Shown here piece after piece: positions 33,266 through 36,869 of a stretch of 64,000 nt of DNA (position 1 is its first letter; each line of letters opens with the position of its first letter). The notes beneath the pieces are model-generated. The model saw only the letters and a list, made by a program, of their open reading frames with translations. It was not told the DNA's origin and ran no database searches. The position numbers were made by a program, and so were the translations under genes. The stretch lies in NCBI RefSeq assembly GCF_016026235.1, contig NZ_CP065613.1, one strand, 5' to 3'. Origin of the DNA: Escherichia coli (GTDB lineage: Bacteria; Pseudomonadota; Gammaproteobacteria; Enterobacterales; Enterobacteriaceae).

Positions 33266-33694
33266 TTACTGTTGTAATTGACGAATATGGGAGACGACGT
33301 CCAGGCAACTGTTGCGCCCAGCTTCCACCAGATCGGCCACGCAGGCGGTCAGTGGGCCATGTTCGCGCTTGTCCAGCGCCTCCAGCAGCAGCGAGGCATT
33401 AAGCCCGGAGATCACCGCCACCGGATAATCGGCGCTCAGCCGCGCCGCCACGTTAGAGGTGGTGCCGCCGATAAAATCGGTCACGATAAGCGAACCTTCC
33501 GGCATGGTTTTCACCACGGCTTCGACGCGCTGGTAAAACTCGCCCAGCGTATCGACGGGCATCAGCGCGATTTCCGTCACGCCTTCGATTTCGCCCATCA
33601 CCATGCGCAGACTGTTGCAGAGCTGCAGCCCCCAGCCGCCGTGAGTTAGCAGCAGAATTTCAGGTAACGGATGAATAGGTACAGTTGTGGTCAA
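33266..33694 (-). CDS. Mannose-family PTS EIIA component (DgaA-like), probable TTG start
   Basis: 142 aa; AAGGAGG Shine-Dalgarno 6 nt upstream of TTG; no in-frame ATG until codon 31. Confidence 0.75.
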   Translation of the reverse strand: MTTTVPIHPLPEILLLTHGGWGLQLCNSLRMVMGEIEGVTEIALMPVDTLGEFYQRVEAVVKTMPEGSLIVTDFIGGTTSNVAARLSADYPVAVISGLNASLLLEALDKREHGPLTACVADLVEAGRNSCLDVVSHIRQLQQ

Positions 33695-33732
33695 AATAGC
33701 CTCCTTTGCTCCAGTGTTTACATTTCATCAGG

Positions 33733-33748
33733 AGCAAAGGACGTGCCA
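33733..33748 (-). promoter_or_regulatory. Sigma-54 (-24/-12) promoter for the PTS operon
   Basis: Minus-strand TGGCACGTCCTTTGCT, a full match to TGGCACG-N4-TTGCW, about 40 bp upstream of the EIIA start and next to a sigma-54 activator gene. Confidence 0.75.
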
Positions 33749-33812
33749 GAATTTGTGTCACGCACAGAGGAAATGAGATTGGATGGGGCGTTAAGCCCCG
33801 TAAACCAGGGGA

Positions 33813-36611
33813 TCAGCTGTAGAGCAGTTCGTAGATATAAAAATATTCTGCGTCCGATAAACGGATAGCGTAAGCCTCTTCAATCGGCAAAAAGGAGGAT
33901 TTGATGACGCTAAAGGCACGAGCGTCCAGATCAAGCCGGTTTTCTAGCGCCATCTGTAACGGTTTGCGGTTAATCACGATACGCTCGACCATGCAGCAGC
34001 AGTGGATCAGAAAACGTAGTGTCACCTGGCGGCTCGGTTTCAGGGAGAGCGTGTTGGTTAAGTAGTTCAGAACATCCTCGATCTCTTTCAGAATTCGCTG
34101 CGGGTTGAGCACCGAAATATGGTTGATGATGCTCTCCATGGTCAGCGCGCTGATAAAGCGCATGGCGCTGCGCTCCATCTCCAGTCGGCGCTCGCTGCTT
34201 GAGAGATCCGGCGTCAGCAGGCTGAGCACCAGCTCCGGCCCTTGCTCGGAAAACAGTTCCTCCAGCGAGATAAACGGTATATCCGGCAGTCCCGGCTGGA
34301 AGGTGCCGACGATCCCTGCCAGCCGTTCACTGGCATTAAGCGCCTGCTGAATACGCTCCAGGCTGCGCACCTCGTTATAGTCGAGAATCACCATACGCGT
34401 GTCCTGCGACATCAGCTCGCCAAAGCTCTCCTCCAGCACCTTTTTGATCTTTTCCGCCGTCCCCATTCCGGTTATACATGAGATAACCAGCACTTTGCCA
34501 CCGCTCTCTTGCTGCGGCGTGCAGAGCCGACAAGGGATATTTTTACTCTGCATAAGCACAGCCAATTGCGATAGATCGCCAGTTTCGTAGCTTAAATCCA
34601 GCCCAACCTCCAGCAGGCTGGTCAGAGTGATATTTGGCAACAACAGAACGTCAATCTGGAACAGCTTGCTGATGGTGCTGCCAAAATGGACCAGCGATCC
34701 GATATCCACCATCAGTATCAGCCGCTGCCAGCACCGGTCCTGAATCATCCGGGTCAGGGTTTCCAGGGTGTCATGCACCGACTGCTCAAATGGCATATCA
34801 ATTGCGTAGAACAGATCGCGCTCCAGCACCCGGTTCACATATTGCGCCTGGCTCGTTGCGGTGGTCGCACCGTGAGCGATTAGAATCACGCCGCAATCCG
34901 GGCTGGTGTCGATGCGCTGGCGGTAGTGGCGACACTCTTTCAGGAACAGGCACAGCCAGACCACCTCCGTCGCCGGGCACTGAATATGCAACAACTCATT
35001 GATTTTGCGGCACAGAAGCGTGGCATTGTCATACTCATCTTTACAGCGATCCAGAATCAGGCTGGATGAATAGAGTTGAGGTATAAGCCCTCGCCGCACA
35101 TAGCCAATCAGCGCAAGAAAGTGTTTACGTAACGGGTTCGCCAGGTTTTCTGGCAATGTAAATCCTAATACCTGCTCCACGTAACCGATCAGCAGCGTCA
35201 CACGCTCCTCAATTTGATCGCCATAGCGCGGTGGATGCGCCGCACTATGGCGGCTATAAAGACCATATTCAAAAATCGAACTGAGTTTGTTTTTCAGGAT
35301 AGCCAGCGTTTCTGCGGGCGGCACGTTACTGTTGCGCAGATTGACATATTCACGAGTCAGGAAACTGTAAAACAGGTCGCTCTCTTCTATTTCCGCGCTG
35401 GTCGCCAACGAATTTTTTAACGCGGGCAACGTACGCGCATCCACGTTCAGACGATCTTTACCGCCAAACAACGCATCGACCAGCAGACGCTGCTCTGGCG
35501 TGGTATTAAACGACATCTCCGCCAGTCGTTTATCTAACTCTAGCGTATCATTACGCTCGGTCATTCCCGACGCCCACGCCTGCGCGCACAAGAACTGAAT
35601 ATCACTTTTAAGCTGGCCGATATTGCCTTCCAGGGGTTTACTTAACAACCAATGCAAGAGCGTTTTATCAAGGCTTATGGTACGTTCAATTTTACGACTT
35701 TCACGCTGAAAAAAGCTTACAATCAATTCGAGCTGCTCCTCGACCGAACGCTGGCGAATACCCGGTAAGTCAATACATACCTGGATACGCCGCTGGAAGG
35801 TACGCAATAGTGCCGAGTTGACCGACTCTGTAGTGGCGCAAATAAGGCGCACCGAAATTGAATATGTTGGCCCACTTGAACCAAGTGGGCGGTATTCACC
35901 TTTATCGAGAATAGAAAAGAGCTTCTCTTGTCCTTCGTACGGGAGGCGATGCACTTCATCCAGAAGTAAATAACCTCCGTCAGCTTGCTCCACCAATCCC
36001 GTTTTATTCTCACTTGCCCCGGTAAATGCCCCCTTATGGTGACCAAACAGATGTGAGGAAAGCAACTCCGGATTATGAGCATATTCGGCACAGTTAAAGT
36101 AAACCAACGGAGGTGGCGAACCTATGGTGTGCTTGCAAGCGAAGCAATGCATTAACTCAGCAAAGAATGTTTTGCCAACACCAGATGCACCGGTTAACAG
36201 CACATGTAGTCCGTGGGGATAAAGCACCGCTGCGCGGCCTTTTTCTACCGCATCACGGAGACTACGGTCGTATCCGATAAGTCCGGAAAACGGATCATCA
36301 TCTGTATATTTTTCTTTCTTTGGCAATAAACTAGCCACTGAATGAACTATGCATTCGCAATCATCCAGTTTTCGATTAATGAGCAATTCTAGTGCGTGAC
36401 GATGTAGAAAAAAAACAGGACGTCCCTGACTTTTTACCACCAGGCCTTCATTCCATAATTGATTAAGATCTTTACTAACCGAGTTGCGTGCCAGCCCAAG
36501 GTTAAAACCAATCGCCTCAGCAGTAAATGCTTTCTCCTTCGCTAAATCAGACAGTTCCAGCCCATACGTCAGCCGCTCCAGCTCCTTGTGAATAACATCA
36601 ATCCGTCTCAT
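33813..36611 (-). CDS. Sigma-54-dependent LevR-type transcriptional activator with PRD and PTS-regulatory domains (DgaR-like)
   Basis: ORF trimmed to ATG giving MRRIDVIHK...; AAA+ core with Walker A GASGVGKT and the GAFTGA motif. Confidence 0.85.
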   Translation of the reverse strand: MRRIDVIHKELERLTYGLELSDLAKEKAFTAEAIGFNLGLARNSVSKDLNQLWNEGLVVKSQGRPVFFLHRHALELLINRKLDDCECIVHSVASLLPKKEKYTDDDPFSGLIGYDRSLRDAVEKGRAAVLYPHGLHVLLTGASGVGKTFFAELMHCFACKHTIGSPPPLVYFNCAEYAHNPELLSSHLFGHHKGAFTGASENKTGLVEQADGGYLLLDEVHRLPYEGQEKLFSILDKGEYRPLGSSGPTYSISVRLICATTESVNSALLRTFQRRIQVCIDLPGIRQRSVEEQLELIVSFFQRESRKIERTISLDKTLLHWLLSKPLEGNIGQLKSDIQFLCAQAWASGMTERNDTLELDKRLAEMSFNTTPEQRLLVDALFGGKDRLNVDARTLPALKNSLATSAEIEESDLFYSFLTREYVNLRNSNVPPAETLAILKNKLSSIFEYGLYSRHSAAHPPRYGDQIEERVTLLIGYVEQVLGFTLPENLANPLRKHFLALIGYVRRGLIPQLYSSSLILDRCKDEYDNATLLCRKINELLHIQCPATEVVWLCLFLKECRHYRQRIDTSPDCGVILIAHGATTATSQAQYVNRVLERDLFYAIDMPFEQSVHDTLETLTRMIQDRCWQRLILMVDIGSLVHFGSTISKLFQIDVLLLPNITLTSLLEVGLDLSYETGDLSQLAVLMQSKNIPCRLCTPQQESGGKVLVISCITGMGTAEKIKKVLEESFGELMSQDTRMVILDYNEVRSLERIQQALNASERLAGIVGTFQPGLPDIPFISLEELFSEQGPELVLSLLTPDLSSSERRLEMERSAMRFISALTMESIINHISVLNPQRILKEIEDVLNYLTNTLSLKPSRQVTLRFLIHCCCMVERIVINRKPLQMALENRLDLDARAFSVIKSSFLPIEEAYAIRLSDAEYFYIYELLYS

Positions 36612-36869
36612 TTCTTTACCGCTTAAAAAACAATAGTTGTTCAGAACATACACTATTTGTAAACGTAAGAATGAGAACTATCGGGAAGAATTAATGTTCC
36701 TTGTGGCAATCTGGTTTCTGAATATTCGTGTTTTAAATATTACTTATGGTCTGAAACAACCAGGCAGGTGAACAGAGCTAAGAAAAAGTAGCGTAGAAAT
36801 ATAAAAACATATATCGCACTGATGAATGTTTCCCGGCATGACTATGCACACCGGGAAATATTTAGTAAA

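Follow-up and report, generated by a model that had tools for sequence, protein, structure and literature searches.

An inverted repeat spans the sigma-54 promoter and the ribosome-binding site of the Escherichia coli dga operon and may act in read-through RNA from dagR

The dagR-dgaABCDEF locus and its sigma-54 promoter

The window analysed here is a stretch of 64,000 nucleotides of E. coli contig NZ_CP065613.1. On its minus strand it carries an activator gene followed by a co-directional phosphotransferase (PTS) operon, with the following genes:

dagR (dgaR), 33813..36653, minus strand: LevR-type sigma-54 activator (NF047795, Sigma54_activat, PRD, RefSeq)
dgaA, 33266..33694, minus strand: PTS EIIA of the mannose family, 142 aa, TTG start (EIIA-Man domain, RefSeq)
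dgaB-dgaF, 29296..33255, minus strand: rest of the operon
dgaB, 33255..32770, minus strand
dgaC, 32744..31995, minus strand
dgaD, 31995..31138, minus strand
dgaE, 31134..30026, minus strand: frameshifted in the window
dgaF, 30048..29296, minus strand

Judged from its gene content, this is the E. coli D-glucosaminate (dga/dag) PTS operon dgaABCDEF, since DgaR, EIIA-D of the mannose family, the ammonia lyase DgaE and the KDPG aldolase DgaF are encoded in one co-directional cluster. DagR and DagF both scored above the cutoffs of their NCBIfam equivalogs (1521 bits for DagR against NF047795, with a cutoff of 1400), DagR contains Sigma54_activat AAA+ and PRD domains, and the RefSeq annotation agrees with the identity of the operon. 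RefSeq places the start of dagR at 36611, 14 codons inside the open reading frame that begins at 36653. The TTG start codon of dgaA (33694..33692) was also chosen by RefSeq/PGAP in an identical E. coli sequence. TTG is the dgaA start in almost all proteobacterial orthologues, with one GTG (loci L002-L044), and ATG is used in Firmicutes and beta-proteobacteria; on these alignments, the conservation of TTG, a weak start codon, is unusually strong.

The locus was found in 562 of 5,426 complete E. coli genomes and was always chromosomal, and a 601-bp stretch around the promoter and the inverted repeat described below was at least 99% identical in 560 of these 562 carriers. In the one E. coli record examined for its flanks, the locus lies between speB and loiP. 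Within the window, dgaE is divided into two open reading frames (243 aa and 126 aa), and its profile match likewise falls into two pieces. The break at 30454-30459 (minus strand) is a 1-nt homopolymer deletion, A6 compared with A7 in strain E2865, which has an intact dgaE of 1110 bp; the explanation is either pseudogenisation in the window strain or an error of sequencing. RefSeq also records the EIIA gene as frameshifted in E. coli GB089 (NZ_CP013663.1; locus L046, 607-1000). Together, the two frameshifts point to decay of the dga locus in some lineages of E. coli.

dagR and dgaA are co-directional, and 65 nt separate the dagR stop codon from the -24 element of a sigma-54 promoter. The elements between the two genes are:

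sigma-54 promoter TGGCACGTCCTTTGCT, 33748..33733, minus strand: -24 GG at 33747/33746 and -12 GC at 33735/33734
predicted sigma-54 transcription start, 33721..33723, minus strand: 11-13 nt past the -12 C, at the standard -12/+1 spacing and within the 18-nt loop of the inverted repeat
dgaA Shine-Dalgarno AGGAGG, 33700..33705, minus strand: ends 5 nt before TTG

A full sigma-54 consensus on the minus strand had been claimed from the letters of the sequence alone, and the claim was borne out. TGGCACGTCCTTTGCT is the sole match to TGGCAC-N5-TTGCW in the 64-kb window, agrees at 16/16 positions and compares with an expectation of 0.15 matches; at least one match appeared in 13 of 100 shuffles of the window. 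Its GG and GC dinucleotides are spaced by exactly 10 bp. Moreover, the gene of the cognate activator DagR is adjacent, dgaA-F lie downstream, and the site is conserved in orthologous loci from Firmicutes to Proteobacteria. Two other candidates were rejected: a second sigma-54 site on the plus strand, formed by the inverted copy of the -12 element, has no GG at the required spacing, and TGACAC-N6-TGGCA, considered as an overlapping sigma-54-like site, varies in spacing from 4 to 6 nt across taxa.

Comparison with the Salmonella dga promoter, which the sequence-only reading had proposed as a check, yielded a near-identical orthologue with experimental support. The Salmonella dgaA promoter TGGCACAACCTTTGCTCT was bound by sigma-54 holoenzyme in a ChIP-chip experiment, and the dga operon was 39-fold up with a promiscuous activator (PMC3844500). 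D-glucosaminate use in Salmonella depends on DgaR, a LevR-type enhancer-binding protein that activates dgaABCDEF from a sigma-54 promoter (PMC4987338). Salmonella Typhimurium dgaA (STM3772) and DgaR (STM3773) share with E. coli the gene order dgaR-dgaABCDEF and the activator family, and the two promoters are nearly alike (TGGCACAACCTTTGCTCT in Salmonella, TGGCACGTCCTTTGCTCC in E. coli). By sequence, the E. coli promoter is the orthologue of this characterised promoter and is in that sense already known by orthology, and RefSeq already annotates dagR. Given the fixed distance from the -12 element to the start, we infer that dgaA transcription in E. coli begins at 33721..33723. For comparison, the start of Bacillus thuringiensis celA has been mapped 13 bp downstream of its sigma-54 site (PMC10864463).

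We scanned a genome collection for DagR and obtained 43 orthologous loci from Enterobacterales, Gilliamella, beta-proteobacteria and two Firmicutes; Salmonella was not among them. Every orthologous locus examined carries a -24/-12 promoter after dagR, about 30-80 nt from the dagR stop codon in Enterobacterales, Gilliamella and the two Firmicutes, and about 165-300 nt from it in the three beta-proteobacteria.

Candidate activator sites upstream of the promoter

The sequence-only reading had reported no upstream activator sites. That statement is now superseded, as a conserved TGACAC lies right against the -24 element, with further copies inside dagR. The sites considered here are:

TGACAC in GCGTGACACAAATTC, 33755..33760, minus strand: promoter-proximal candidate DgaR site, 6 nt upstream of TGGCAC, at -38..-33
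TGACAC within GTGACACT (34025..34018), 34019..34024, minus strand: distal candidate enhancer in Val-Thr-Leu codons of dagR, about -300 from the start
TTACAG in the invariant AAACCGTTACAG, 33954..33959, minus strand: about -237, resembling the TGACAG sites of beta-proteobacterial loci
GCGTCA, 33905..33910, minus strand: degenerate inverted [GC]TGTCA, about -188 and about 114 bp downstream of the distal TGACAC
AT-rich block GAATATTTTTATATCTACGAA, 33828..33848, minus strand: 3' end of dagR, about -126..-106, between the candidate enhancer and the promoter

In the 45 nt that precede TGGCA, no 6-mer was shared more widely than TGACAC, which occurs in 19 of 23 genus-level lineages at 4-6 nt from TGGCA. 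Firmicutes have the promoter-proximal copy as well, although their DagR is only 39-40% identical. Inside dagR, the codons that form the distal copy are nearly fixed, with Thr ACA invariant in 39/39 distinct sequences and Val GTG in 38/39, while neighbouring synonymous sites vary and a second conserved Thr of this stretch is encoded by all four codons. At the TTACAG site, both the rare Leu codon TTA and CAG are invariant (39/39 each). At the position of GCGTCA, most other orthologues have an intact [GC]TGTCA, in which Ser AGT or TCT followed by GTC keeps the TGTCA, and Escherichia has AGC. The longer spacers of the beta-proteobacteria contain extra TGACAG/CTGTCA copies. Relative to TGGCA, TGACA[CG] occurs at the conserved positions -276, -162 and -12, on a background of 0.9 per kb. 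There is thus a repeated and conserved motif upstream of the promoter with invariant synonymous sites inside it, and the TGACAC-type sites are, by this pattern, good candidates for the DgaR enhancer. The synonymous sites of the AT-rich block are also constrained (TAT in 39/39 and TAC in 37/39), and GAATATTTTTATATCTACGAA may bend the DNA or serve as an IHF-like site, although its resemblance to the IHF core is weak.

PRD-containing sigma-54 activators next to mannose-family PTS operons offer a precedent, with a short repeated motif upstream of -24/-12: the upstream activating sequence (UAS) of LevR at Bacillus subtilis lev lies at -125, and B. thuringiensis CelR has three UAS (PMC10864463). The dga locus differs from LevR and CelR in that candidate copies lie within the coding sequence of the activator itself (about -300, -237 and -188), and from usual enhancers in that one copy at -38..-33 abuts the -24 element, far closer than the LevR site. 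The UAS of DgaR was given as not known in a review (PMC4987338), and the TGACAC sites provide a concrete candidate for it. The copy abutting -24 raises the question of what an activator site would do there.

The inverted repeat in Escherichia and in orthologous loci

The promoter and the dgaA ribosome-binding site are joined by an inverted repeat, whose arms are listed here with a weak hairpin between dagR and the promoter:

5' arm TCCTTTGCTCC, 33731..33741, minus strand: promoter spacer and -12 element (including GC 33735/33734), about -19 to -9, upstream of the predicted start
3' arm GGAGCAAAGGA, 33702..33712, minus strand: about +11..+21 of the sigma-54 mRNA, overlapping the Shine-Dalgarno
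weak hairpin GGGGC-TTAAC-GCCCC, 33785..33799, minus strand: after the dagR stop codon, without a T run

A perfect inverted repeat with arms of 10 nt, 18 bp apart, had been described from the sequence. It is real and one base longer, with two 11-nt arms (33702-33712 and 33731-33741) that are 100% complementary across an 18-nt spacer. The coordinates and the RefSeq start also confirm the placement given at that time, with one arm on the -12 element and the other on the Shine-Dalgarno of the TTG-initiated EIIA gene, and GGAGCAAAGGA takes in the first three bases of AGGAGG. Perfect inverted repeats of 11 nt or longer whose spacer is 3-30 nt occur 5 times in the window, compared with 0.45 in first-order Markov simulations, and the chance expectation of such a repeat in this ~60-bp interval is about 4e-4. 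The other four, at 265, 25910, 26173 and 61852, have spacers of 4-20 nt and are probably terminators or REP elements. An Rfam search returned no family match.

The earlier view that only the downstream arm is transcribed holds for the sigma-54 mRNA, as far as the fixed -12-to-start distance predicts its 5' end, and fails for RNA that would enter from dagR. Since dagR is co-directional and directly upstream, and no terminator is predicted between the two genes, a read-through RNA would hold both arms. Scans of 33500-34100 found no terminator-like site and no sigma-70 promoter, and within Escherichia the hairpin that follows the dagR stop codon is weak and varies. We compared predicted folds of the two transcripts. 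For the read-through RNA 33760..33690 (71 nt, both arms), the predicted energy is -23.5 kcal/mol (z = -4.7), and 0/200 shuffles were as stable; the leader from the sigma-54 start folds at -2.8 kcal/mol (z = +1.4), and 192/200 shuffles were more structured. For the Shine-Dalgarno, the predicted probability of being unpaired falls from 0.59 in the sigma-54 mRNA to 0.06 in the read-through RNA; shuffling the upstream sequence gave 0.34, and values as low as the observed one came up in 5.5% of shuffles. In the predicted fold, the 11-bp stem is followed by 5 + 4 further pairs (TGGC/GCUA and AAAU/AUUU) up to TTG, such that almost the whole promoter is paired with the stretch from the first GGAG to TTG.

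The sequence-only reading had staked its interpretation on the presence of the inverted repeat in orthologous promoters, and the answer is divided: neither its sequence nor its register is conserved, but about half of the lineages have excess self-complementarity at this place. Within Escherichia, the arms are invariant while the upstream intergenic sequence varies, with one substitution in the loop. Among 23 genus-level lineages, about half were more self-complementary between the promoter spacer and the start codon than their dinucleotide shuffles, with a mean z of -1.8 (t-test p = 7e-4, not corrected for phylogeny). Arm sequences show no relation from one lineage to the next, as in the following examples:

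Gilliamella apicola: TTTTTGCTCCT / AGGAGCAAAAA, z -6.6
Pantoea sp. 1.19: CTCTCTTC / GAAAGAGAG, z -2.3
Klebsiella michiganensis: TATTACGT / ACGTAATA, z -3.7
Enterobacillus: CTGTAGT / ACTACAG, across a 79-nt leader, z -3.4

Moreover, promoter segments pair better with their cognate leader than with the leaders of other lineages (mean rank about 0.3, with 0.5 expected; rank 0 in 8 lineages). The Escherichia leader differs from that of Citrobacter and Cedecea by several changes, all of which raise pairing (GCTCT->GCTCC with CGAGC->GGAGC; CCAGG->CAAAGG). The Citrobacter type, whose members are near relatives of the Salmonella promoter, has only an imperfect GCTC..TTAC/GTAA..GAGC dyad. The E. coli leader has diverged, and the perfect 11-nt repeat reaching into the Shine-Dalgarno is specific to Escherichia. 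On these comparisons, the repeat was most plausibly strengthened in the Escherichia lineage. REP/BIME-like palindromes of ~90-100 nt (GCCGGATGGCGGC...GCCTGATAAGCG...) were also observed in the dgaA 5' leader, between the -12 element and the Shine-Dalgarno and hence inside the loop of the dyad, in several Citrobacter species, Superficieibacter and an Enterobacter (L004, L006, L009, L015, L034, L041), where the leader grows from 42 to about 135 nt.

Other comparisons gave no sign of a shared structure. Trabulsiella, Yokenella, an Erwinia metagenome-assembled genome (MAG), a Klebsiella MAG and the Firmicutes have no dyad. RNAalifold on 19 promoter-to-start sequences returned only the trivial GGCA/UGCU pairing of the -24/-12 consensus, and no structure between the promoter and the ribosome-binding site. 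The Citrobacter-type dyad, defined by hand, was rejected as a case of covariation, because 74% of its positions were paired compared with 72% in column shuffles and compensatory changes were few; it is conserved sequence. Across orthologues, sequestration of the Shine-Dalgarno was not above that with shuffled upstream sequence (0.32 vs 0.38). Pairing with the Shine-Dalgarno was therefore rejected as a general rule on this orthologue test, and was retained for just Escherichia, Gilliamella and a small number of others. A comparison of the strands (G-U versus A-C asymmetry), which might tell RNA from DNA, showed no difference, with z of -1.8 for the sense and -1.5 for the antisense strand (p = 0.26). 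Trabulsiella and both Firmicutes, which lack the dyad, have a T-run terminator after dagR, and the strengths of terminator and dyad are weakly anticorrelated (rho = -0.40, p = 0.04, uncorrected for phylogeny).

Possible roles of the inverted repeat

We tentatively propose a role for the inverted repeat in RNA, confined to transcripts that arrive from dagR, in which it would bury the dgaA ribosome-binding site; of the readings considered we find this the most plausible, although at less than even odds. In such transcripts, the promoter from -24 to -9 would itself be transcribed into RNA, and the transcribed promoter would pair with the ribosome-binding region of dgaA, such that the Shine-Dalgarno would be buried and dgaA would not be translated from the read-through RNA. 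The sigma-54 mRNA would start inside the 18-nt loop without the 5' arm, and would present an unusually open leader. Expression of the dga operon would thus require firing of the promoter by DgaR, and transcription of dagR itself would leave the operon unaffected. Both the read-through from dagR and its effect on dgaA translation are inferred. The anticorrelation between terminator and dyad, together with the lineages that have a terminator and no dyad, fits this read-through model, and arm sequences that are not conserved while self-complementarity recurs speak for an RNA hairpin and against a protein operator. The better pairing of cognate segments, the Escherichia substitutions that raise pairing and the invariance of the arms within Escherichia also count in favour. 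On the other side, the sense and antisense strands are equally structured, which gives no specific pointer to sense-strand RNA and counts against the model. A bound sigma-54 closed complex might already stop read-through, which is a further point against it, as are the decay of the locus in some strains, the several lineages without a dyad, a register that is not conserved, Shine-Dalgarno pairing across orthologues no stronger than with shuffled upstream sequence, and the weakness of the terminator correlation.

Much of this last evidence also suits an account in which the repeat has no dedicated function. It would then be a by-product of two constrained elements that are complementary, the C/T-rich spacer with TTGCT and the purine-rich ribosome-binding site, together with lineage drift in an accessory locus whose selection is relaxed in parts of E. 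coli. The absence of a dyad from about half of the lineages, a register and covariation that are not conserved, a Shine-Dalgarno that is sequestered across orthologues no more than with shuffled upstream sequence, and the pseudogenisation of dgaE in the window and of the IIA gene in strain GB089 are all as this account would have them. However, a by-product does not readily explain a perfect 11-nt repeat where about 4e-4 are expected, a fold with a z of -4.7, or independent strong dyads at the same place in lineages as distant as Gilliamella and Enterobacillus. Nor does it explain why cognate pairs outperform non-cognate ones and why the Escherichia-specific substitutions all raise pairing. 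We consider this account unlikely, though with a real chance of being correct.

Quite unlikely, in our view, is a hairpin that serves as a terminator or 3'-end stabiliser of dagR transcripts, in which case the read-through RNA would end at the dgaA start codon. The 18-nt loop contrasts with the 3-8 nt typical of intrinsic terminators, only four U follow the extended stem, and the scan of 33500-34100 was empty. The T run, moreover, is not conserved (CACTTTG, CAAATTG), and most orthologue stems stop several bases before it. These observations outweigh the ones that prompt the idea, namely an extended stem from TGGC to GCTA of 16 pairs that is followed by UUUU at 33696..33693, the frequency of ATTTTG, including the unusual TTG start, among orthologues, and the weak anticorrelation with upstream terminator strength.

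The DNA-level operator favoured by the sequence-only reading, a dimeric repressor on both arms that would occlude the -12 element and the start site, is not supported and very unlikely: the dyad does not differ in strength between the strands, its centre falls on the start site, as is classic for operators, and its 5' arm is absent from the sigma-54 mRNA, but its half-sites differ between genera while the promoter and TGACAC are conserved, their centres are 29 bp apart (about 2.8 turns) and so on different helix faces, no regulator gene except dagR lies in the neighbourhood, and the arms are unlike the DgaR-associated motif. To our knowledge, the arms are also unlike the consensus sequences of Cra, NagC/Mlc and CRP. 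Dyad symmetry that is kept without conservation of sequence is the signature of a folded nucleic acid and not of a protein site, which makes the operator the weakest of these readings.

An RNA-level role in read-through transcripts, which we prefer, has a precedent in fold-back inhibition, a device of mobile elements of which IS50 is a further case besides IS10. In IS10, transposase translation is inhibited by fold-back in read-through transcripts (Davis, Simons and Kleckner 1985, as cited in PMC13181058). The dga repeat resembles that of IS10, where the 5' arm precedes the native start of the element and the 3' arm sits on the ribosome-binding site, such that only transcripts from outside can form the hairpin; here, the arms at -19..-9 and +11..+21 flank the predicted start, and pairing extends up to TTG. 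In contrast to IS10, the sigma-54 promoter itself serves as the 5' arm at dga, the 'outside' transcript would originate in the gene of the operon's own activator, and conservation of the predicted dyad is patchy.

Taken jointly, the promoter would serve as an anti-ribosome-binding site in dagR read-through RNA, which would make translational competence specific to the promoter, and a DgaR enhancer would lie in synonymous positions of dagR and in the site abutting -24. We consider this combination, two undescribed layers of information in one locus, somewhat unlikely to hold as a whole. If the read-through model is true, the dga operon would extend the insulation device of IS10 and IS50 to a chromosomal, sigma-54-linked case, and would show how an operon right behind its constitutively transcribed activator gene remains tightly off.
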